Shown here: in pieces, positions 11,305 to 62,105 of the stretch
Position numbering within the stretch: position 1 is the first letter of the stretch
Layout of the letters: the number at the start of each line of letters is the position of its first letter
Source of the DNA: Paludibacteraceae bacterium
GTDB taxonomy: Bacteria; Bacteroidota; Bacteroidia; Bacteroidales; Paludibacteraceae
Length of the DNA: 64,000 bases
Direction of reading: 5' to 3'
Assembly: GCA_017477325.1 (NCBI GenBank)
Contig: JAFUWV010000005.1
Coordinates: 2,439 to 66,438, forward strand
Notes under the pieces: generated by a model
Databases searched by the model: none
The model's input: only the letters and a program-made list of their open reading frames with translations
What the model was told of the DNA's origin: nothing
Made by a program: the position numbers and the translations under genes

Positions 11305-11437
11305 AGTTTGCCAAGTTTGAGGGGTTTGAGAAGTTCGTAAAGTTTGTAAAGTTTGCTGAGTTTGAGGGGTTTGAGAAGTTTGTAAAGTTCGTTGAGTTCG
11401 TTGAGTTTGTTGAGTTTGTAAAGTTCGTTGAGTTGGA
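11305..11437. repeat. Imperfect tandem array, 9-nt unit (AGTTYGNNN) x ~15
   Basis: Units read off directly: agtttgcca, agtttgagg, ggtttgaga, agttcgtaa, agtttgtaa and so on. The array runs from the MFS stop codon (11438-11440) to 39 nt upstream of the susC ATG. A 27-nt sub-block recurs at a 45-nt offset. Confidence 0.95.
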
Positions 11438-12787
11438 TTAGTCCTTCTTTTCCTTTATAAATATAACTGCGGCAGCGCCAAGGATGAGCAGTGCACCTGC
11501 CACAACAAGCATCATGACCTGACTGCCGGCACATATATGCTGCAGAAGCAAGCCTCCGCAAAGGGCAGCGATGATCTGCGGTAGGCAGATTGTGCAGTTG
11601 AACAAACCGAGAAGTGTGCCCATATACTTACTGCCGGAGATGGCATTGGTGATAATAGTGAAAGGCAGAGCAAGCATTGCCGCCCATGCCGCACCTATGA
11701 AGGCATAGCTAATAAGGAGCACATACTGATTGGTCACAAGCATTGCAGACGCGAAGCCAAGACCTCCGACAACGAGAGAGATGGCATAAGCACCCTTGTT
11801 GCCTGTGTATTTCTCAAGCAAAGGAAGAAGCATAGCCCAGAGAAGAGAGCCTACAGCCTGAATAGCGAAGCAGACTCCCACCCAGTTGCCGGCAGACTGG
11901 AAGGCGGCATCAGCGGTAGAGGCACCATCCCAACCGAAGCATTGAGTGGCAATAGCGCCATTGGAGTAGGTCCACATATACATAAAGGCAGCCCAGCAGA
12001 AGAACTGCACAAGGCCAACCGTCAGGAACGAGCGAACGATAAAGCCGGTATTGGAAGCGCCTTCGGAAGTCTCTTCTTTCTTATTATTAAGTCCGTGGAA
12101 CTCGGCATACTCCTGCGGGTCCATCTCTTCGACAGCGAAGAAGGTGTAGAGTACACAGAGAATGAGGATGGCAGCGCCGACATAGAACGACCACTTGACA
12201 GAGGCGGGGATGACTCCCTCTGGAGCCGTGTTGGCGATACCTATCCAAGTAAAGAAGATAGGGAAGAGGTAACCTACGAGCGAGCCTGCGTTGCAGAGTG
12301 CGGACTGAATGGCGTATGCCGTACCTTTCTGTTCCTCGTTGACCATATCGCCCACCATCATCTTGAAGGGTTGCATGGCTATATTAATAGAAGTGTCGAG
12401 GAACATAAGCGAGAACAGACCGAACCACATGGCGGCATTAAGCCCGAGCCATACACCCTGCTCGAAGGTAAAGTCGCCTGCATTAGGCAGCAGCACCATG
12501 ACAGCAACGGCGATAACCGCACCTATAAGAAGATAGAACTTACGACGGCCAAAGAACTTACCGAACCAAGTCTTGTCGGACAGAATACCGATAAGAGGCT
12601 GAACTATCATACCCATAAGCGGGGGCAAGATCCAAAAGAAAGATAATTGATGAGGGTCTGCGCCGAGAGTAGCAAATATTCGACTAATGTTGGCACTCTG
12701 CAGAGCGTATGCTATTTGAACTCCGAAGAAGCCAAAACTCAGATTAAAAAGTTGTCCGAGGGACAAATTGCGTTTTTCTGTTGGCAT
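11438..12787 (-). CDS. MFS sugar transporter (GPH/SLC45-like), first gene of the starch locus
   Basis: About 12 predicted TM segments. The start is moved to ATG 12787 (MPTEKRNLSLGQLFNLSFGFFGVQ), which follows a -7 box. The track start at 12850 lies upstream of that promoter. Confidence 0.8.
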   Translation of the reverse strand: MPTEKRNLSLGQLFNLSFGFFGVQIAYALQSANISRIFATLGADPHQLSFFWILPPLMGMIVQPLIGILSDKTWFGKFFGRRKFYLLIGAVIAVAVMVLLPNAGDFTFEQGVWLGLNAAMWFGLFSLMFLDTSINIAMQPFKMMVGDMVNEEQKGTAYAIQSALCNAGSLVGYLFPIFFTWIGIANTAPEGVIPASVKWSFYVGAAILILCVLYTFFAVEEMDPQEYAEFHGLNNKKEETSEGASNTGFIVRSFLTVGLVQFFCWAAFMYMWTYSNGAIATQCFGWDGASTADAAFQSAGNWVGVCFAIQAVGSLLWAMLLPLLEKYTGNKGAYAISLVVGGLGFASAMLVTNQYVLLISYAFIGAAWAAMLALPFTIITNAISGSKYMGTLLGLFNCTICLPQIIAALCGGLLLQHICAGSQVMMLVVAGALLILGAAAVIFIKEKKD

Positions 12788-12808
12788 AATTTCAGTTTTA
12801 AAAGCCCG

Positions 12809-12816
12809 CAAAGTTA
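12809..12816 (-). promoter_or_regulatory. -7 box TAACTTTG for the MFS/PUL operon
   Basis: The reverse complement of caaagtta matches TAnnTTTG, 22 nt upstream of ATG 12787. Confidence 0.5.
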
Positions 12817-13013
12817 CTACTTTTATTTCAATAAGCAAAATTTTTTGCATAATTTTCTTATTATTTTTGATATTTTTTAGGAAGAAAAAGTATGTGACAT
12901 ATTGATTTGCAGTAATGTGCTACAGACAGATGCGGATGGGAAAGCAATGCGTAAGGAGCAGGCGGAAGCGCCCCACCCTCTGCGAGAGAAAAGAGACATA
13001 GAAGCGCGACAGT

Positions 13014-13068
13014 TCGTTTACGTGTCGTTTACGTCTCGTTTACGTGTCGTTTACGTCTTTTTTACGTA
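13014..13068. repeat. Tandem array, 11-nt unit TCGTTTACGTS x 5
   Basis: tcgtttacgtg, tcgtttacgtc, tcgtttacgtg, tcgtttacgtc, ttttttacgta. The last base alternates G and C. Confidence 0.95.
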
Positions 13069-13093
13069 AATGAGAGGATTGAGAGTGAGAAAA

Positions 13094-13192
13094 GGGAGTT
13101 AACAGGGAGAGAATCGGGAGCTAATCGGGAGAGAAATGGGAGATAATGGACAGATAATGGACAGATAATAGACAGATAATAGACAGATAATG
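13094..13192. repeat. Tandem array with 11-nt phasing x 9, drifting from GGGAGnnAAyn to GACAGATAATR
   Basis: GGGAG starts at 13094, 13105, 13116, 13127 and 13138, exactly 11 nt apart. GGACAG/AGACAG units then continue at 11-nt steps to 13192. Confidence 0.9.
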
Positions 13193-13289
13193 AAGCTATG
13201 GTGCAGAGAAAATGGAGAAAAAATGAGAATTTGAGAGATTGTAGAGCATTTTTTGCAAGAAAAGACTTGCACAATTGGAATAAAAGTTT

Positions 13290-13297
13290 TAATTTCG
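13290..13297 (+). promoter_or_regulatory. Near-consensus -7 box TAATTTCG (followed by CAC) upstream of recQ
   Basis: One mismatch to TAnnTTTG. It has the same TAnnTTTGCAC-like context as other promoters in this window. It would place the heptamer array in the recQ 5' leader. Confidence 0.35.
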
Positions 13298-13312
13298 CAC
13301 TCTGAATAGGTG

Positions 13313-13402
13313 TTACTGGTTACTGGTTACGGGTTACGGGTGACGGGTGACGGGTTACGGGTTACGGGTTACCGGTGACGGGTTACGGGTGACGGGTTAC
13401 GG
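13313..13402 (+). repeat. Tandem heptamer array (TKACGGG) x 13, G-quadruplex-competent on the plus strand
   Basis: ttactgg x2, ttacggg x2, tgacggg x2, ttacggg x2, ttaccgg, tgacggg, ttacggg, tgacggg, ttacgg. There are six consecutive GGG tracts with 4-nt loops, then three more. Confidence 0.95.
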
Positions 13403-13458
13403 AGGAAGGGGAATGATGCACACGAAGGAAAAAATATCAAAACATATCTTAATAATAT

Positions 13459-15639
13459 ATGAGCAGACACGAAGAACTACTCGAAGCACTGAAGAAGAAT
13501 TTCGGTTTTGACGGTTTCAAGGGGAATCAGGAGGCCATTATTGACAACTTGATGGATGGTAACGACACATTTGTGCTGATGCCGACAGGCGGCGGCAAGA
13601 GTCTGTGTTACCAACTGCCTTCATTACTGATGGAAGGAACAGCGATAGTGATATCCCCTTTGATAGCACTGATGAAGAACCAGGTGGATGCGATGCGCAA
13701 CTATTCTGAAGAAGACGGCATAGCCCACTTTATCAATTCATCGCTGTCGAAAGCAGAGATCCAGTCGGTGAAGGAAGACATACTGGGAGGAAAGACAAAG
13801 TTGCTGTATGTAGCCCCTGAATCGCTTAACAAGGACGACAATGTGGACTTTCTGCAGAACGTTAAGATATCGTTTTACGCAGTGGACGAGGCACACTGTA
13901 TATCGGAATGGGGTCACGACTTCAGGCCTGAGTACAGAAGGATATTGCCGATAGTGAAGCGAATAGGGCGCGCTCCGATTATTGCACTGACAGCCACCGC
14001 CACTCCCAAAGTGCAGCATGACATACAGAAGAACCTGGGAATGCTGAAGGCACAGGTGTTCAAGTCATCGTTCAACCGGCCGAACCTATACTATGAAGTA
14101 AGGCCGAAGACGGACGATGTGGACAAGGAGCTGATAAAGTATATCCGCTCGATGGAGGGCAAGTCAGGTATAGTGTACTGCCTGTCAAGGAAGACGGTGG
14201 AGGATCTGGCGCAGACACTTCAGGTGAACAACATATCGGCACTGCCGTATCATGCAGGAATGGACAGCGCTGTCAGAACGCAGAACCAGGATGATTTCCT
14301 GATGGAGAAAGCGCAAGTGATTGTTGCCACAATAGCTTTCGGCATGGGTATAGACAAACCCGACGTGAGGTTTGTGGTCCATTATGACATACCCAAATCA
14401 CTGGAAGGCTACTATCAGGAGACCGGCCGAGCAGGCAGAGACGGCGGCGAAGGTCAGTGCATCTGCTTCTACTCCCCAAAAGACATAGAACGCCTGAGGA
14501 AATTCCAACAGGGCAAGCCTGTTGCGGAACAGGAGATAGGCAACCAGCTGCTGTTCGAGACACAGAGTTACGCCGAATCGACATTGTGCCGCAGAAAGCT
14601 GTTGCTCCACTATTTCGGCGAGGAGTACGACCAGGACAACTGCGGCAATTGCGACAACTGCAAGAAGACATACAAGATAATAGACGCAGGCGAGTTGCTT
14701 CAAGTGACACTTGAGACGATACAGCAACTGAACGAGAAGTTCAAGGCAGAGCATGTGGTTGACATACTGAAGGGCAACGAGACACAGACGGTGCTGAGCT
14801 ACAAGCACAACGAGCTGGAGAACTTCGGCATAGCAGAAGACGAGGACGAGAGCACGCTGCACGCCATCATCCGCCAGGCTATGCTGACAGGCATCATAAA
14901 GAAAGACATAGAGGCCTACGGAGTACTGAAACTGACCTCGGACGGAAAGAAATTCCTTAAGAAAGGCGGCGAGTTCAAAGTGCCGATAGAAAGCAACGGC
15001 GAGGACGAGGAAGACATGGAGCCGACCATGGCAAGCGGCTCGGCAGCAGACGACGTGCTGTTCTCGATACTGAAAGACATACGCAGGAAACTGTCGAAGA
15101 AACTGGAAGTGCCTCCATTCGTAATCTTCCAGGACCCCAGTCTGGAAGCGATGGCAACAAGCTATCCTATCACAATAGAGGAGTTGCAGAACATACCGGG
15201 TGTTGGTGCAGGCAAGGCAAAGAGATACGGCGAGGAATTCATACATATAATAAAGGAATATGTAGAGGAGAACGAGATTATCCGTCCGGAAGACCTGAGA
15301 GTGAGAACCGTTGCCAAGAAGTCGCAACTGAAGATAAGTATCATTCAAGCCATAGACCTGAGAAAAGACCTGGACGACCTGGCGGAGTCGAAGGGTATGT
15401 CGATGGAGGAGCTGCTGGAAGAGATAGAAGCAATAGTCTATTCGGGCACGAAGCTCAACATCAACTATTTCATCGAAGAAGTGGTTGACCCCGACAAGGA
15501 GGAAGAGATATACGAATACTTCCAGAACGCAGAGACGGACAACATAAAGAAGGCCTTGGAGGCACTCGGCGAAGACGACTTTACCGAAATAGAAGTGCGC
15601 CTTGTGAGGATAAAGTTCCAATGCGAGTTGGGGAGTTAA
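13459..15639 (+). CDS. recQ: ATP-dependent DNA helicase RecQ
   Basis: 726 aa. Motif I MPTGGGKS, DEAH box with the RecQ signature DEAHCISEWGHDFRPEY, a Zn-binding Cys cluster (CGNCDNC) and a C-terminal HRDC-like region. Confidence 0.95.
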   Translation: MSRHEELLEALKKNFGFDGFKGNQEAIIDNLMDGNDTFVLMPTGGGKSLCYQLPSLLMEGTAIVISPLIALMKNQVDAMRNYSEEDGIAHFINSSLSKAEIQSVKEDILGGKTKLLYVAPESLNKDDNVDFLQNVKISFYAVDEAHCISEWGHDFRPEYRRILPIVKRIGRAPIIALTATATPKVQHDIQKNLGMLKAQVFKSSFNRPNLYYEVRPKTDDVDKELIKYIRSMEGKSGIVYCLSRKTVEDLAQTLQVNNISALPYHAGMDSAVRTQNQDDFLMEKAQVIVATIAFGMGIDKPDVRFVVHYDIPKSLEGYYQETGRAGRDGGEGQCICFYSPKDIERLRKFQQGKPVAEQEIGNQLLFETQSYAESTLCRRKLLLHYFGEEYDQDNCGNCDNCKKTYKIIDAGELLQVTLETIQQLNEKFKAEHVVDILKGNETQTVLSYKHNELENFGIAEDEDESTLHAIIRQAMLTGIIKKDIEAYGVLKLTSDGKKFLKKGGEFKVPIESNGEDEEDMEPTMASGSAADDVLFSILKDIRRKLSKKLEVPPFVIFQDPSLEAMATSYPITIEELQNIPGVGAGKAKRYGEEFIHIIKEYVEENEIIRPEDLRVRTVAKKSQLKISIIQAIDLRKDLDDLAESKGMSMEELLEEIEAIVYSGTKLNINYFIEEVVDPDKEEEIYEYFQNAETDNIKKALEALGEDDFTEIEVRLVRIKFQCELGS

Positions 15640-15653
15640 CGGAAAGGACAGAG

Positions 15654-16997
15654 ATGCACAAGGGAGAGATAGACATCATAACGCTGGGGTGCTCGAAGAA
15701 TCTGGTGGATGCGGAGCGACTGATGAAGCAACTGGAGACAAGAGGCTTCAAGTGTGTGCATGACTCTGCCAATCCGCAAGGAGAGATAGCAATAATCAAC
15801 ACATGCGGTTTCATAGGTGATGCCAAAGAAGAAAGCATAAACACCATACTGCAATTCATAGAGCGCAAGAAGCACAAGAAGCTGAAGAAACTGTATGTGA
15901 TGGGGTGTCTGTCGGAGAGATATCTTGCCGACCTTGAGCAAGAACTGCCCGAAGTGGACAAGTACTTCGGCAAGTTTGATTATATGGGGATAGTGGAAGA
16001 GGTGGCAAGAGTTCCAGGTTCCAGGTTTCAGGTTTCAGGTCTCAGGTTTCAGGTCTCAGGAGTTGCCGAGTACGAGAGAGTGCTGACCACTCCGAAACAC
16101 TTTGCTTACCTGAAGATAGCGGAAGGATGCAACCGTTTCTGTTCTTACTGCGCGATACCGCTGATTACGGGCAGGTACAAGAGCCGTCCGATAGAAGAGA
16201 TTGTGGAAGAAGTGAGATGGCTGGTGAAACAAGGGGTAAAAGAACTGCAAGTAATAGCCCAGGACCTGACTTACTACGGCACCGACATATACGGCGAGAG
16301 CAGAATTGCAGAACTGGTGGACAAGATAAGTCAGGTTGAGGGAATCAAGTGGATACGCCTGCATTATGCCTACCCCACACATTTCCCGACGGACCTGCTG
16401 CCAGTGATGCGCGAGAGAGACAATGTGTGCAAGTATCTTGACATCGCCCTGCAGCACTCCACCGACCACATGCTGAGCCTGATGCGCCGCCATATCACCC
16501 ATGAGGAGCAGACCGCCCTCATACATGAGATTCGCAGACAAGTGCCGGGCATACACTTGAGAACCACAATGCTGGTAGGACACCCCGGAGAGACAGAAGA
16601 GGACTTTCAGGCACTGAAACAATGGGTGAAAGAGATGCGTTTCGAACGTCTGGGAGCCTTCAGCTACAGCGACGAGGAAGGCACATACGCCAACCAGCAC
16701 TACGAAGACAACATCCCGCAGGAGGTGAAAGACAGGAGACTGGACGAGCTGATGAGCATACAGGAAGAGATAGCGGCAGAACTCAACAGGGCAAACACAG
16801 GCAAGACGATGCAGGTGGTGATAGACAGGGAAGAGGATGAGTACTACATAGGCCGAACCGAGTTCGACTCGCCGGAGGTGGATCAGGAGGTGCTGATAAA
16901 GAAAGACAGAGAGTTGAAGGTGGGCGAGTTCTACATGGTCCGCATCTCAGAAGCGGACACCTTCGACCTGTATGGAATCATAGTGAACAATGCATAA
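15654..16997 (+). CDS. rimO: Ribosomal protein S12 methylthiotransferase RimO
   Basis: MTTase N-domain (IDIITLGCSKNLVD), radical-SAM CxxxCxxC (EGCNRFCSYCAIP) and a TRAM-like C-terminus. The start is moved to ATG 15654, just after the recQ stop at 15637-15639. Confidence 0.9.
   Translation: MHKGEIDIITLGCSKNLVDAERLMKQLETRGFKCVHDSANPQGEIAIINTCGFIGDAKEESINTILQFIERKKHKKLKKLYVMGCLSERYLADLEQELPEVDKYFGKFDYMGIVEEVARVPGSRFQVSGLRFQVSGVAEYERVLTTPKHFAYLKIAEGCNRFCSYCAIPLITGRYKSRPIEEIVEEVRWLVKQGVKELQVIAQDLTYYGTDIYGESRIAELVDKISQVEGIKWIRLHYAYPTHFPTDLLPVMRERDNVCKYLDIALQHSTDHMLSLMRRHITHEEQTALIHEIRRQVPGIHLRTTMLVGHPGETEEDFQALKQWVKEMRFERLGAFSYSDEEGTYANQHYEDNIPQEVKDRRLDELMSIQEEIAAELNRANTGKTMQVVIDREEDEYYIGRTEFDSPEVDQEVLIKKDRELKVGEFYMVRISEADTFDLYGIIVNNA
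16011..16059 (+). repeat. Tandem heptamer array (GTYYCAG) x 7 inside the rimO coding sequence
   Basis: gttccag x2, gtttcag x2, gtctcag, gtttcag, gtctcag. It is translated in frame as VPGSRFQVSGLRFQVSG. Confidence 0.95.
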
Positions 16998-18549: not shown

Positions 18550-18554
18550 ATTTA

Positions 18555-18682
18555 GTTGAGAGTTGAAAGTTGAGAGTTGAGAGAAGTTTATTAGTTGAAA
18601 GTTGAGAGTTCTTAGTTTGCTTTGCTCTCACGATCGGCAAGCCGTGGAGAGAAGTTTATTAGTTGAAAGTTGAAAGTGGATA
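18555..18682 (+). repeat. Heptamer arrays (AGTTGAR) with a 27-nt direct repeat, spanning the uvrA initiation region
   Basis: AGTTGAG/AGTTGAA units lie at 18555-18582, 18594-18621 and 18662-18682. GAGAGAAGTTTATTAGTTGAAAGTTGA occurs at 18580-18606 and again at 18648-18674. The hairpin CTCTCACG-n10-CGTGGAGAG lies between them. Confidence 0.9.
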
Positions 18683-45773: not shown

Positions 45774-46315
45774 ATGCCACGACAAAATAACATATCCGAG
45801 CCGGAAATAATAACAGCCCGTCTGACAACCGATATCGAAAACCTGATTAGAAGTATCAGAGGCAAACAGGTTATGCTTGACCGAGATTTATCAATGCTAT
45901 ACGGTGTAGAAACTAAAGCGCTTAATCAAGCTGTCAAGAGAAACATTTCAAGATTTCCTGAGGACTTTATGTTTCAGTTTACCAAAGAAGAAAACGATAT
46001 TTTAAGGTCACAACTTGTGACCATAGAAACAGAAAATACTATAAGGTCACAAATTGCAACCATAGACAAAAGAGGGCGGCACGTAAAATATTTGCCGTAT
46101 GCTTTTACTGAGAATGGCATAGCCATGTTAAGCAGTGTGCATCGCTCTCAACAGGCAATAGAGATATTGTTGAATTTCAGAAGTCTCACGACCGCTTTCT
46201 ATGCATTGACAATACTGTATACCATATAGGTGCCTCACTTAAAGACCTTGGCAAACGCTGGTTTGCCTTCTCAAGAATGGAGATAACAACCGACAAACTT
46301 TTAAGTAAACTATAA
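45774..46315 (+). pseudogene. ORF6N (KilA-N-related) domain gene disrupted by an internal deletion or frameshift
   Basis: The N-terminal frame gives IRGKQVMLDRDLSMLYGVETKALNQAVKRNISRFPEDFMFQ...AFTENGIAMLSSV and stops at 46229. A second frame, open 46112-46315, gives EFQKSHDRFLCIDNTVYHIGASLKDLGKRWFAFSRMEI, which I recall as the usual C-terminus of this family. The junction is near 46160-46175. Confidence 0.6.
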
Positions 46316-46412
46316 TACTTCAAACCTGAAACCTGATACTCAAACTACCCCGCCTATGAATAAATAACATATAACAATACAAACATATAACTCTTAGCGT
46401 TATAAGCCCAAC

Positions 46413-46549
46413 TTGATTGTTTGAAAACTCGACACTTTCAACTAATCATTAGATGTTCAAGCATGGTTTTATGTGCGCTCACGTATTAGCGTGAGTATTC
46501 CGTGCATAAATTTGAACATCTAAGGTAGTCGAGAACCTCAAACAATCAA
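46413..46549. other. 137-nt long imperfect hairpin (candidate structured RNA or MITE-like element)
   Basis: Pairings traced by hand: 46413-24/46538-49 (12 bp), 46428-33/46528-33 (6 bp), 46451-60/46512-21 (10 bp), 46471-77/46501-07 (7 bp including 2 G-U), 46478-83/46490-95 (6 bp), with a hexaloop. An asymmetric internal loop lies at 46434-50 versus 46522-27. Confidence 0.5.
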
Positions 46550-46691
46550 ATGGAAGCAGCGAAAGCGCACGCTTTTCTCATGTCTGTATGTGTTTGTTGA
46601 TACGTTCGATGAAAAGTCCTTGGTACTTGGTCTCTTGGTACTTAAAATATACTCTCGTTAAGATAGCAGGCAAACGGACAGCCCTAGTCCT

Positions 46692-46735
46692 TGACCGAGC
46701 GACGAGCGGGAGATGACCGAGAGATGAGCGGGACA
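46692..46735. repeat. Tandem 22-nt duplication (4 x 11-nt sub-units)
   Basis: TGACCGAGCGACGAGCGGGAGA followed by TGACCGAGAGATGAGCGGGACA. A short CTTGGTA-type array lies nearby at 46619-46643. Confidence 0.85.
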
Positions 46736-46820
46736 AAAAAGAGACTGAAAAATGTACTCTGATTAAGAATGAACCAACAAAACAACCAAATAAGCAATTA
46801 ACGCGACGCAAGCCGCAAAT

Positions 46821-46873
46821 ATTAACAATTAAAAATTAACAATTAAAAATTAACAATTAAAAATTAAATTATT
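46821..46873 (+). repeat. Tandem array, 14-nt unit ATTAACAATTAAAA x 3.8, abutting a start codon
   Basis: Three perfect units lie at 46821-46862, plus a partial unit that ends at the ATG at 46874. Confidence 0.95.
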
Positions 46874-48046
46874 ATGAGAAAAAAACTATTTTCAATTCTT
46901 CTCGCCCTCGTAGCCGGCATTGGCTTCAGTTGGGCGTCCACCATCACCGTAACGTGGAACAACGATGACATAACCGGCAGTGGAAATTCTTTCACCAAGG
47001 ACGGTGTCACTATAACTGCCGGCGTGATAGACTTCACGGAAAAGAATTTCTCGCGCGGCGGAACATTTACCACCACCCTCGGCAACTTCACCAAGATTGA
47101 AGTGACTGCCCGGTATGCTCGCCTCTCCGGCACAGGCTGGTCTGGCAGCACATGGACCGGCAATGCTTCCAGCGTATCGTTCAGTGGCGATATTTATGGT
47201 ATGGGAACTGGCGTAACGATGGTGTTCACCATTGAGCCGACGACCGTCGATGTCACCGGCGTGACCCTCTCGCAGAGCGAGGCGGCAATGACCGTGGGCG
47301 GCGAGACGCTGACGCTGACCGCTACCGTCGCCCCCGACGACGCAACGGACAAGACCGTGACATGGACGTCGAGCGACCCAACCGTAGCAACTGTAGCTAA
47401 CGGCGTAGTAACCGCCGTAGCAGCCGGCACAGCTACCATCACCGCCACCGCCACCAACGGCACCGATGACACCACCGATGACAAAACCGCTACCTGCACT
47501 ATTACGGTTACTGACCCTGACCAAGTAGCAGCAGATGCAGTACTGGCTCTGTTCGATGCCCTGCCTGCTATCGATGCCATTACACTGGACAACAAAGAGG
47601 CTATCGAAGCTGCCCGCGCTGCATACGACGCTCTGACCGATGAGCAGAAAGCACTGGTTACTCCCGAAGACTTAGCCAAACTGACCGCCGCTGAAGAAGC
47701 ACTGGCTGCTGCTGAGAAAGCCGCTGCCGACCAAGTAGCAGCAGACGCAGTACTGGCTCTGTTCGATGCCCTGCCTGCTGTAGAGAATATTACGCTGGAC
47801 AACAAAGAGGCAATTGAAGCTGCCCGCGCTGCATACGAGGCACTGACCGCCGACCAGAAAGCACTGGTTTCTGCTGAGGACTTGGCTAAACTGACCGCTG
47901 CAGAAGAAGCTCTGGCTGCATTAGAATCTCAAGGCGTTGAGAATGTACAAGGTAATGTGAAGAATGTCAAGATTCTTGAGAACGGACAAATCTTCATCCT
48001 CCGCAGCGAGAAGGTATATACATTGCAAGGCCAAGAGGTAAAATAA
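46874..48046 (+). CDS. Secreted Big_2 (bacterial Ig-like) domain protein with two 70-aa helical repeats and a short conserved C-terminal motif
   Basis: Signal peptide MRKKLFSILLALVAGIGFSWA. Big_2 block VTGVTLSQSEAAMTVGGETLTLTATVAPDDATDKTVTWTSSDPTVATVANGVVTAVAAGTATITA. There are two copies of DQVAADAVLALFDALP...ITLDNKEAIEAARAAYDALT..QKALV..EDLAKLTAAEEALAA. Confidence 0.75.
   Translation: MRKKLFSILLALVAGIGFSWASTITVTWNNDDITGSGNSFTKDGVTITAGVIDFTEKNFSRGGTFTTTLGNFTKIEVTARYARLSGTGWSGSTWTGNASSVSFSGDIYGMGTGVTMVFTIEPTTVDVTGVTLSQSEAAMTVGGETLTLTATVAPDDATDKTVTWTSSDPTVATVANGVVTAVAAGTATITATATNGTDDTTDDKTATCTITVTDPDQVAADAVLALFDALPAIDAITLDNKEAIEAARAAYDALTDEQKALVTPEDLAKLTAAEEALAAAEKAAADQVAADAVLALFDALPAVENITLDNKEAIEAARAAYEALTADQKALVSAEDLAKLTAAEEALAALESQGVENVQGNVKNVKILENGQIFILRSEKVYTLQGQEVK
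47519..47919 (+). repeat. 210-nt tandem duplication inside the Big_2 gene
   Basis: Copy 1 starts at 47519 and copy 2 at 47729, both with gaccaagtagcagcaga. Nucleotide identity is high over about 190 nt. Confidence 0.9.
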
Positions 48047-60978: not shown

Positions 60979-62105
60979 GAAAATCAGCAGTGATATTGGG
61001 GTGGATATTTGTTTGCATGCTACTAACAACAAGTTGCAAGAAGCAGGCATCAAACGTAGCAATACAAATACCACATGGGCAATATGCTCAAGGGTTTGTG
61101 CTGACAGAGCATGAAGATTATAGTGAGGTGATTATTTTTGACCCATGGGAAAAAGGCAAAGTGATGCAGAGGTATTTTTTGGTGACAGGTGATGGTACAC
61201 AGGTGACAGGAGACGGGCTGGTTGTAAGAGTGCCTATCAGGAGAATGGCGGTCACATCATGCACACATGTAGGTTTCTTAGATGCACTTGGCGAGACAGG
61301 TTCTCTGTGCGGAATATGCTCTCCGAAATTAGTATATACACCTATACCATCAGAGAAAGAAGGATGTGCCGACCTGGGAGATGCCATGCAAGTGAATCCG
61401 GAAAGAGTAATACTGACCCACCCTGACGCTGTGATGATAAGCACCTACGCACAAGGCGATGGGGTAAGACAATATATGGAGAAAACCGATATTCCTGTAA
61501 TCTACAACAATGAATGGACAGAATCTTCGCCTCTTGCACGGGCAGAGTGGATACGGCTTATAGGAGCTTTTTATGATAAGCAGGAGATGGCGGATAGCAT
61601 ATTCAGGTGTGTAGAAACACAATACAAGGAGTTAAGACAGCAAGTCAAAGAGCAAATAAAGGAAAAGCGCACGCTGATGGCAGGAAACAACTTCAGAGGG
61701 ACATGGTATATGCCAAGCGGGAAAGTATATACAGGCCAATTATACAGAGATGCAGGTGCGAGCTATTTTTATGAAAACGACTCCACAAACGGGAGTATTC
61801 CGCTAACAGTGGAGAGCGTACTGATGAATTTCCGCAATGCCGATGTATGGGTTAACAGTACAGCACGCAGCATGAAAGAACTACGCGAGATAGACGAGAA
61901 GCACACTTGGTTCAAAGCTTACCGGACGGGAGAGGTGTATAACTTTCTTCGCCGCAGTACGGACTACGGAGCCAACGACTTCTGGGAGAGTGCGGTAGTA
62001 CATCCCGAGAGGTTACTGAGAGACATGGTGTGGGTGCTGTATCCCAAATTGCTACCTTCGGACTATGAGCCGTATTACACAGAGAAAATCGGTGATAGCG
62101 AATAA
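60975..62105 (+). CDS. Periplasmic-binding-protein-type lipoprotein (BtuF/iron-siderophore-like ABC substrate-binding protein)
   Basis: Lipobox LTTSCKK and a two-lobed alpha/beta pattern. The assignment comes from general resemblance only. A 4-nt ATGA overlap links it to engB. Confidence 0.5.

Follow-up and report, generated by a model that had tools for sequence, protein, structure and literature searches.

This analysis concerns a tandem array of heptanucleotides that lies just upstream of recQ, the gene for a RecQ-family DNA helicase, in a 64,000-nucleotide stretch of contig JAFUWV010000005.1 from a Paludibacteraceae bacterium (assembly GCA_017477325.1). We refer to this whole 64 kb stretch as the window, and coordinates are positions in it unless another locus is named. 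The recQ coding sequence occupies positions 13459..15639 of the + strand and specifies a full-length protein of 726 aa, in which Pfam identifies the DEAD, Helicase_C, RecQ_Zn_bind, RQC, HRDC, and RecQ-1-like helix-turn-helix domains. RecQ orthologues across Paludibacteraceae and Bacteroidales share 70-95% amino acid identity, and they assign the window to a clade of uncultured Paludibacteraceae from rumen and gut. The + strand location of recQ is supported by its Pfam domains, and therefore the G-rich strand of the array is the non-template strand of the gene, as stated in the original prediction, which a model had made for this locus.

The array is a simple sequence repeat of 13 TKACKGG units (13 units of 7 nt, 91 nt in total) at positions 13313..13403 of the + strand, in the putative 5' leader of recQ; Tandem Repeats Finder (TRF) places it at 13312-13402 with a period of 7, 13.0 copies, 89% matches, and a score of 133. 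Read from 13313, it consists of two units each of TTACTGG, TTACGGG, TGACGGG, and TTACGGG, followed by single TTACCGG, TGACGGG, TTACGGG, TGACGGG, and TTACGGA units. The original prediction described thirteen tandem TKACGGG units: the number of heptamers is right, but the exact TKACGGG sequence is found in only 9 of the 13. Its description of the G tracts agrees with a regular-expression search. Six consecutive GGG tracts separated by 4-nt loops span 13331..13368 (+ strand) and satisfy the canonical G-quadruplex (G4) pattern, that is, at least four tracts of three or more G separated by loops of 1-7 nt on one strand (G3N1-7x4). Three more GGG tracts follow at 13380-13396 and, together with an 11-nt loop and a GGGG tract (13408-13411), make up a second G-tract cluster at 13380..13411 on the same strand. 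Relative to the recQ ATG, the putative G4 motif lies at -128 to -91, inside the 200 bp upstream of the gene. Neither strand of the window contains any other G3N1-7x4 motif, and 100 dinucleotide shuffles gave a mean of 0.17 motifs. G4Hunter, run as the predictor check proposed for this region, gave scores (25-nt window) of 1.2-1.64 across 13325-13419; most fall between 1.2 and 1.4, and the maximum of 1.64 is reached at 13385-13419 only, where the usual thresholds are 1.2 (permissive) and 1.5 (strict). The heptamer array is confirmed as real and as G4-competent by sequence pattern.

Upstream of the array lies a promoter that fits the primary-sigma pattern of Bacteroidota (-33 TTTG and -7 TAnnTTTG, with a spacing of 17-23 nt). 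The -33 element is a TTG (13267..13269, + strand) within CTTGCA, 20 nt 5' of the -7 box TAATTTCG (13290..13297, + strand), so that the promoter reads TTG-N20-TAATTTCG. The -7 box, which had been called near-consensus, indeed differs from TAnnTTTG at one position, and the full-consensus pattern TTG-N17-23-TAnnTTTG was found 5' of recQ in 49 of 53 relatives, where the -7 box and the ATG are separated by a median distance of 65 nt. In the window this distance is about 161 nt; after subtraction of the 91-nt array it becomes about 70 nt, close to the clade median. The array starts about 15-16 nt downstream of the promoter and ends 55-56 nt before the recQ ATG at 13459; its placement was thus predicted correctly, with a slight error in the gap (57 nt). 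In the 350 nt that precede recQ, TAATTTCG is the sole match to a relaxed -7 pattern, and even with one mismatch allowed there is no second -7 candidate from the array to the ATG. The congeneric locus L001 has exactly the same promoter core (13263-13302, AGACTTGCACAATTGGAATAAAAGTTTTAATTTCGCACTC) despite 15% coding divergence, and both the core and the -7 box are invariant across all conspecific strains. Because the promoter core is conserved in a congener and there is no -7 box downstream, the array is most likely transcribed into the recQ leader, an expectation of the original prediction that these comparisons support well. The rest of the leader (13404..13458, + strand) is A-rich, and its 3' half can be aligned with the short leader of L001. 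Around the start codon this RNA is predicted to be mostly unpaired (30 of the 45 positions from -24 to +21); translation initiation in Bacteroidota is not Shine-Dalgarno-based. A search of 12700-13600 against Rfam at a permissive threshold returned no match, and hence no known riboswitch or leader RNA in the region; an exact search for the 33-nt promoter in metagenome contigs also returned no match.

Conspecific strains were found via exact-protein look-ups of RecQ and of the neighbouring 91-aa HU-like protein, whereas the same look-up with the major facilitator superfamily (MFS) protein returned only the window's own contig. The recQ genes of these strains are 97-100% identical at the nucleotide level, and all of the strains carry the array at the same site. 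Five alleles were distinguished: 13 units with 9 GGG units (the window, L082, and L087), 15 units with 8 (L094), 20 units with 6 (L081 and L083), 25 units with 10 (L085 and L088, interrupted), and 29 units with 11 (L089). Copy number therefore does vary between strains, a question that the original prediction had raised. All alleles are mosaics of TTACTGG, TTACGGG, TGACGGG, and TTACCGG, with a unit order that differs from allele to allele, and the most frequent variable base is the one that makes or breaks a G3 tract (TTACTGG vs TTACGGG). The canonical G3N1-7x4 motif is present in all alleles except that of L081 and L083, where a motif is obtained only with loops of up to 12 nt. When unit order was permuted, the probability of a canonical motif was 0.81 for the window allele, 0.41 for L094, 0.05 for L081/L083, 0.25 for L089, and 0.39 for L085/L088; 4 of 5 alleles have the motif, against approximately 1.9 of 5 expected. 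Presence or absence of the motif largely tracks the share of GGG units. We did not accept the excess as a sign of selection for GGG runs, because like units also come to lie side by side through tandem duplication alone.

Misassembly is a classic problem with repeats, and the array might be an artefact of assembling metagenome-assembled genomes (MAGs): several contigs end near it, and one locus contains a run of N in another array region. The short-read contigs L089, L090, and L094 start inside or just upstream of the array region, which is as expected because an unstable repeat is hard to assemble. On the other hand, assemblies made independently from seven or more samples, which come from three sources, place the array at the same site and between the same flanking sequences (the Joint Genome Institute, the European Nucleotide Archive, and the window itself), and the alleles are distinct and internally consistent. 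An assembly artefact is extremely improbable.

Outside the species, the array is absent. The closest species-level relatives are L001, a MAG from roe deer rumen, and L095, whose RecQ proteins are 95% and 94% identical to that of the window (recQ DNA, 84.8% and 82.9%). Both keep the SusC-MFS-recQ-rimO-like-HU gene order, and neither has the heptamer array in its recQ leader; in L001, the same promoter is followed directly by a leader of about 48 nt without any repeat. The original prediction had named close relatives that lack the array at an otherwise identical locus as evidence against a G4-based function, and these two syntenic loci are essentially such relatives. In other species, the recQ leader or its surroundings hold unrelated and mostly non-G arrays, such as AAAGTTA in 30 copies (L114), AAAAGAC (L111), GAATTTA (L099), GGAAAATCC (L018), and ATCGGAGTA (L032). 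The idea that related recQ leaders would also carry G-tract arrays did not hold.

The reading that we favour, with a probability of roughly 75%, is that the array is a hypervariable heptanucleotide simple sequence repeat, (TKACKGG)n, in the recQ leader that is either neutral or modestly tunes expression through leader length and RNA structure. The repeat would have arisen in the lineage of this species, between the conserved -33/-7 promoter and the A-rich translation-start region. Replication slippage or unequal recombination would then expand, contract, and homogenise it, giving rise to alleles that differ between strains, with 13-29 units and a mixture of the TGG and GGG types; slippage as the mechanism of copy-number change is what we infer from comparing the alleles. 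The G4 motif would arise as a by-product, depending on the unit variant that has spread in each allele, and would not be a conserved regulatory device. Any effect on recQ would most likely be a quantitative, heritable, strain-specific change in expression, brought about by leader length and a long G·U-rich RNA hairpin, as in the Haemophilus influenzae hmw1A system discussed below, possibly with a G4 at the hairpin apex or on the displaced DNA strand. The original prediction had offered a similar account as its sober alternative, namely that this is one member of a family of arrays that happens to be G-rich, and this is the better-supported reading. Several points weigh against it. Transcription through the array and an effect on recQ are inferred, in an uncultured organism. 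None of the five sampled alleles has fewer than 13 units or fewer than 6 GGG tracts, and the canonical G4 motif is retained in 4 of 5; there may thus be some within-species selection for G tracts. Finally, the bias of the clade toward arrays with periods of 7, 9, and 11 is not explained by simple slippage.

As RNA, the array is predicted to pair with itself, GUUAC with GUGAC or with GUUAC via G·U pairs. The leader RNA of the window folds at -42.9 kcal/mol (z = -3.0), and none of 200 shuffled sequences was as stable; for the array RNA alone, z = -4.6. A long imperfect G·U-rich hairpin is predicted in all alleles, with energies from -43 to -97 kcal/mol and z from -3.0 to -4.6. When RNAfold was allowed to form G4 structures, it placed a three-layer G4 at 13331-13368 in the window allele, where this fold was better than the hairpin by only 0.8 kcal/mol. 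The minimum-energy fold was free of G4 in 2 of 5 alleles, and in 3 of 5 the G4-containing fold was no more stable than the hairpin. Formation of a hairpin or cruciform by the DNA was ruled out, as the fold of the single-stranded DNA reaches only -7.5 kcal/mol (z = +0.5). Because this DNA hairpin is negligible, a G4 would be the main non-B option on the displaced non-template strand.

The original prediction went further and proposed a feedback loop: a G4 formed by the array, in the displaced non-template DNA or in the leader RNA, would throttle recQ, and since RecQ resolves G4 structures, the G4 load would set the level of RecQ. If true, this would be a helicase whose own substrate controls its synthesis. 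On the one hand, six plus three G3 tracts lie on the non-template strand downstream of a promoter, with no competing single-stranded DNA hairpin to speak of, and a motif is present in all five conspecific alleles if loops of up to 12 nt are allowed. There is also a precedent in Deinococcus radiodurans, where the recA, recF, recO, and recR promoters and that of recQ contain putative G4 motifs and the G4 ligand N-methyl mesoporphyrin (NMM) represses these genes (Beaume et al. 2013, PMC3592403). The two cases agree in that putative G4 motifs lie in the 200 bp upstream of recQ and that G4-dependent control has been proposed for a repair gene. On the other hand, the D. radiodurans motifs are non-repeat sequences in a GC-rich genome, and repression by NMM was measured, whereas the recQ array is a single microsatellite in a low-GC context, known from sequence, that is not conserved in relatives. 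The syntenic congeners do without the array, one of them with the same promoter; the base that varies most among units is the very base that determines the G tracts, and the L081/L083 allele lacks the canonical motif; the arrays in other species' leaders are unrelated; the G4Hunter scores are mostly moderate; and in 3 of 5 alleles the predicted RNA hairpin is no less stable than the fold with a G4. We consider the feedback loop quite unlikely.

A survey of arrays around recQ bears on the same proposal. Our first set comprised 39 loci (38 relatives plus the window), and an independent set comprised 18 further species. In the first set, GGG-bearing arrays on the coding strand upstream of recQ were in excess (7 of 25 vs 2.6 expected; P about 0.002-0.01), whereas GGG-bearing units among other arrays were fewer than expected (2 of 84 vs 6.5), and this excess speaks for a G4-related role. 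However, the first-set cases are partly non-independent (L028 is the same as L031, and the window contributes two arrays), and besides the leader array of the window all of them lie upstream of the promoter and not in the leader. The excess was not replicated in the independent set (2 of 12 vs 0.66 expected; P = 0.13), where GGG-bearing units among other arrays numbered 2 of 42 (4.8 expected). In the first set, 37 loci have 150 nt or more of sequence upstream of recQ, and just one of them, the window itself, has a canonical motif on the strand of recQ. Recurrence of a recQ-linked G4 motif in related genomes, as in the D. radiodurans case, was not seen: L001 and L095 lack the motif, and it was found in 0 of the 18 independent loci even with loops of up to 12 nt. 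Enrichment of GGG-bearing arrays at recQ is unproven.

G4-forming heptamers have themselves been described before. In Xanthomonas and Nostoc, GGGNATC and GGGGA(C/T)T repeats form G4 in vitro; they are numerous and variable, most of them are transcribed, and the study found no regulatory role for them (Rehm et al. 2015, PMC4692102). Like these repeats, the recQ array combines a G3 tract with a 4-nt loop in each 7-nt unit, is intergenic, and varies in length and sequence between close relatives. The Xanthomonas and Nostoc units are dispersed genome-wide with a preference for four units, whereas the recQ array is confined, across the window and 174 loci, to a single locus and consists of 13-29 units mixed with non-G3 variants; neither dispersal at many intergenic loci nor a four-unit preference, the two hallmarks of that class, is seen here. 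With G4 heptamer repeats and G4 motifs at a recQ promoter both already published (PMC4692102; PMC3592403), the statement in the original prediction that nothing of the kind had been described was too strong, and the recQ-leader array adds one case.

The folding results raise a second possibility, that the hairpin is a selected cis-regulatory element. The leader would be double-stranded and act as a target of ribonuclease III (RNase III) or as a stability or translation element, and RecQ dosage, and possibly the stability of repeats throughout the genome, would be set by copy number in the manner of a rheostat or of phase variation. Every allele is predicted to form a long imperfect hairpin, with the z-scores and shuffling results given above; the alternation of T and G (K) at the second position of the unit allows GUUAC-GUGAC pairing, and the TTACCGG unit, present in all alleles, makes a near-palindrome. 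There is direct experimental precedent in H. influenzae hmw1A, whose (ATCTTTC)n repeat is transcribed in the 5' untranslated region and forms a long hairpin that is processed by RNase III, with more repeats leading to lower expression (Rapun-Araiz et al. 2025, PMC12721329). However, the same fold arises from any tandem array of a quasi-palindromic unit, and it relies on many G·U pairs and on bulges of 1-2 nt. Congeners manage without the array, recQ as a housekeeping gene would be atypical as a contingency gene, and homogenisation of the units precludes a covariation test. Selection for the hairpin is therefore unlikely in our view.

The hmw1A heptamer repeat is the closest functional analogue of the recQ-leader array. 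As in hmw1A and hmw2A, the unit is a heptamer present in more than 10 copies between promoter and start codon (where it is probably transcribed in our case), its copy number varies between strains, and the leader RNA is predicted to form a long hairpin. Two features expected of an hmw1A-type repeat are found here, namely head-to-tail units of strain-variable number and, in silico, a leader hairpin that contains the repeats. The hmw hairpin is made of the repeats and a G-rich segment, whereas the recQ array pairs with itself. Further differences are that the units are unrelated, that the gene encodes a housekeeping DNA helicase and not a surface adhesin, and that the recQ array has been seen as sequence only.

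A combination of these ideas would make the array a heritable rheostat for RecQ dosage, in which copy number and the share of GGG units, by way of a G4 on the displaced DNA strand or of a hairpin or G4 in the RNA, set the level of RecQ, and RecQ acts back on G4 and slipped-strand structures, among them those of its own leader and of the other arrays of the lineage. We regard this as very unlikely; were it true, the stability of repeats throughout the genome would be tuned by a self-referential switch that works through a helicase and a non-B DNA structure. This switch would resemble the tandem-repeat switches reportedly described in mutL of enterobacteria. The alleles form a natural series of 13-29 units, from GGG-rich to TGG-rich, in the leader of a DNA-repair gene, and thus a ready test set for G4 and hairpin leader effects in Bacteroidota.

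The recQ-leader array is one of many arrays of 7-, 9-, and 11-nt units in the intergenic spacers, leaders, and a protein linker of this rumen Paludibacteraceae clade. TRF found 0.1-1 short-period arrays per kb in the clade loci L001-L038 and almost none in the Paludibacter, Parabacteroides, and Bacteroides loci L039-L080. Periods were counted in the clade loci L001-L038 and L095-L118 plus the window: in the first set, 36 arrays had period 7, 22 had period 9, and 19 had period 11, versus 3-6 arrays for each of the periods 6, 8, 10, and 12; the second set had 21, 6, and 14 arrays of periods 7, 9, and 11, respectively. The 11-mers are found for the most part in long divergent spacers, upstream of promoters, and the 7-mers in leaders and in short spacers after stop codons. 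This context of common, fast-turnover period-7/9/11 arrays, which extends even to an in-frame protein linker, may outrank the single array in interest. Comparable lineage-restricted 7-nt intergenic repeats are known as the short tandemly repeated repetitive (STRR) heptamers of cyanobacteria.

Intergenic heptamer direct repeats, TAACTGA among others, have also been described from Beggiatoaceae, Cyanobacteria, and Bacteroidetes, with Paludibacter among the last; they are missing from close relatives, and assemblies break there (MacGregor 2015, PMC4679880). The arrays of our clade share with them a lineage-restricted abundance of intergenic 7-nt direct repeats, shorter repeat-free spacers in close relatives, and contigs that break in the repeats. 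They differ in that the repeats described by MacGregor have one dominant unit at many loci, whereas in the Paludibacteraceae clade every locus carries a unit of its own, and arrays of period 9 or 11 are common as well. A search of the literature for tandem repeats in Paludibacteraceae or rumen Bacteroidales gave no match.

For TAACTGA heptamers upstream of start codons, binding by S1, Csp, or CsrA-type proteins has been proposed (PMC4679880), and by analogy the recQ array might be an iteron-like series of sites for a DNA- or RNA-binding protein that reads GTKAC at 7-nt spacing. Its regular repetition fits this idea, and TTACTGG, aligned with TAACTGA in register and in the same orientation, agrees with it at 5 of 7 positions. 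However, a match of this quality is expected by chance with a probability of about 0.18 when 14 rotations and strands are considered, the array lies 56 nt and not a few nt from the ATG, and no TAACTGA repeats are present in the 64 kb window; on these grounds, kinship to the TAACTGA repeats was rejected. A search of the window with a two-unit pattern gave 12 matches inside the array and one more, with two mismatches, at 61202 (0.26 expected). Across the window and 174 loci, the unit is arrayed at the recQ-leader locus only, with none in the 165 other loci, so there is no regulon for such a protein. An array of binding sites is highly improbable. The same confinement of the unit to the recQ-leader locus rules out a dispersed repeat family or regulon motif.

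Other arrays of the window lie close to recQ. Three 11-nt arrays occupy 13014..13192 (+ strand, TRF), between the divergent MFS and recQ promoters: TCGTTTACGTN at 13014-13067, GGGAGAGAATC at 13087-13147, and AGATAATGGAC at 13141-13192. The GGGAGAGAATC and AGATAATGGAC arrays vary in copy number between conspecific strains. The TCGTTTACGTN array has five copies of a unit that contains TTTACGT, and it is common to the window and L001 (3667-3717, 4.6 copies of TTTTTACGTCC) despite the 15% coding divergence, whereas the neighbouring arrays are not shared; it could be a phased array of binding sites for a regulator. On the other side of the MFS gene, a 130-nt array of 9-mers (AGTTTGNNN, window 11305-11434, with higher-order periods of 36 and 45) fills the minus-strand spacer between the MFS stop codon and the start of the SusC-like gene. 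It has 10.6 copies in the window versus 7.7 in the conspecific L081.

Downstream of recQ, a GTTYCAG array of seven copies (16011-16060) lies in frame within the open reading frame 15621-16997 for a rimO/miaB-like methylthiotransferase, in the linker between its UPF0004 and Radical SAM domains. The conspecific loci L081 and L083 have two arrays around a 37-nt unique core in this gene (L081 5553-5677), giving a product of 482 vs 458 aa. At the orthologous site, other species have unrelated AGTTGAR heptamers (L015, L035, L011, and L036), and L001 has none. Arrays evidently invade this coding linker so long as the frame is preserved.

In the spacer between the HU-like gene and uvrA (window 18554-18677), AGTTGAR arrays surround a core, about 45 nt long, that contains a small hairpin (CTCTCACG...CGTGGAGAG). 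In a comparison that took in the window, L086, L088, L090, L091, and L093, conspecific strains have zero, one, or two such core-plus-array modules here, with spacers of 52, 126-133, or 208 nt. This variation suggests unequal recombination of a higher order, or else a small insertion module associated with the heptamer arrays. L086 and L092, from the bioreactor metagenome ERR1278103, encode an identical 91-aa HU-like protein followed by the same downstream genes and have a Peptidase_M6 gene in the place of recQ; judging from this gene order, they are a rearranged or different genome that shares the HU-like block.

Farther along the window, the long intergenic region 46230-46873 contains arrays of CTTGGTA, of TGACCGAGAGA (three copies), and of AAAAATTAACAATT (3.6 copies), the last of which ends just upstream of the gene at 46874. 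The same region has a long inverted repeat around 46400-46560.

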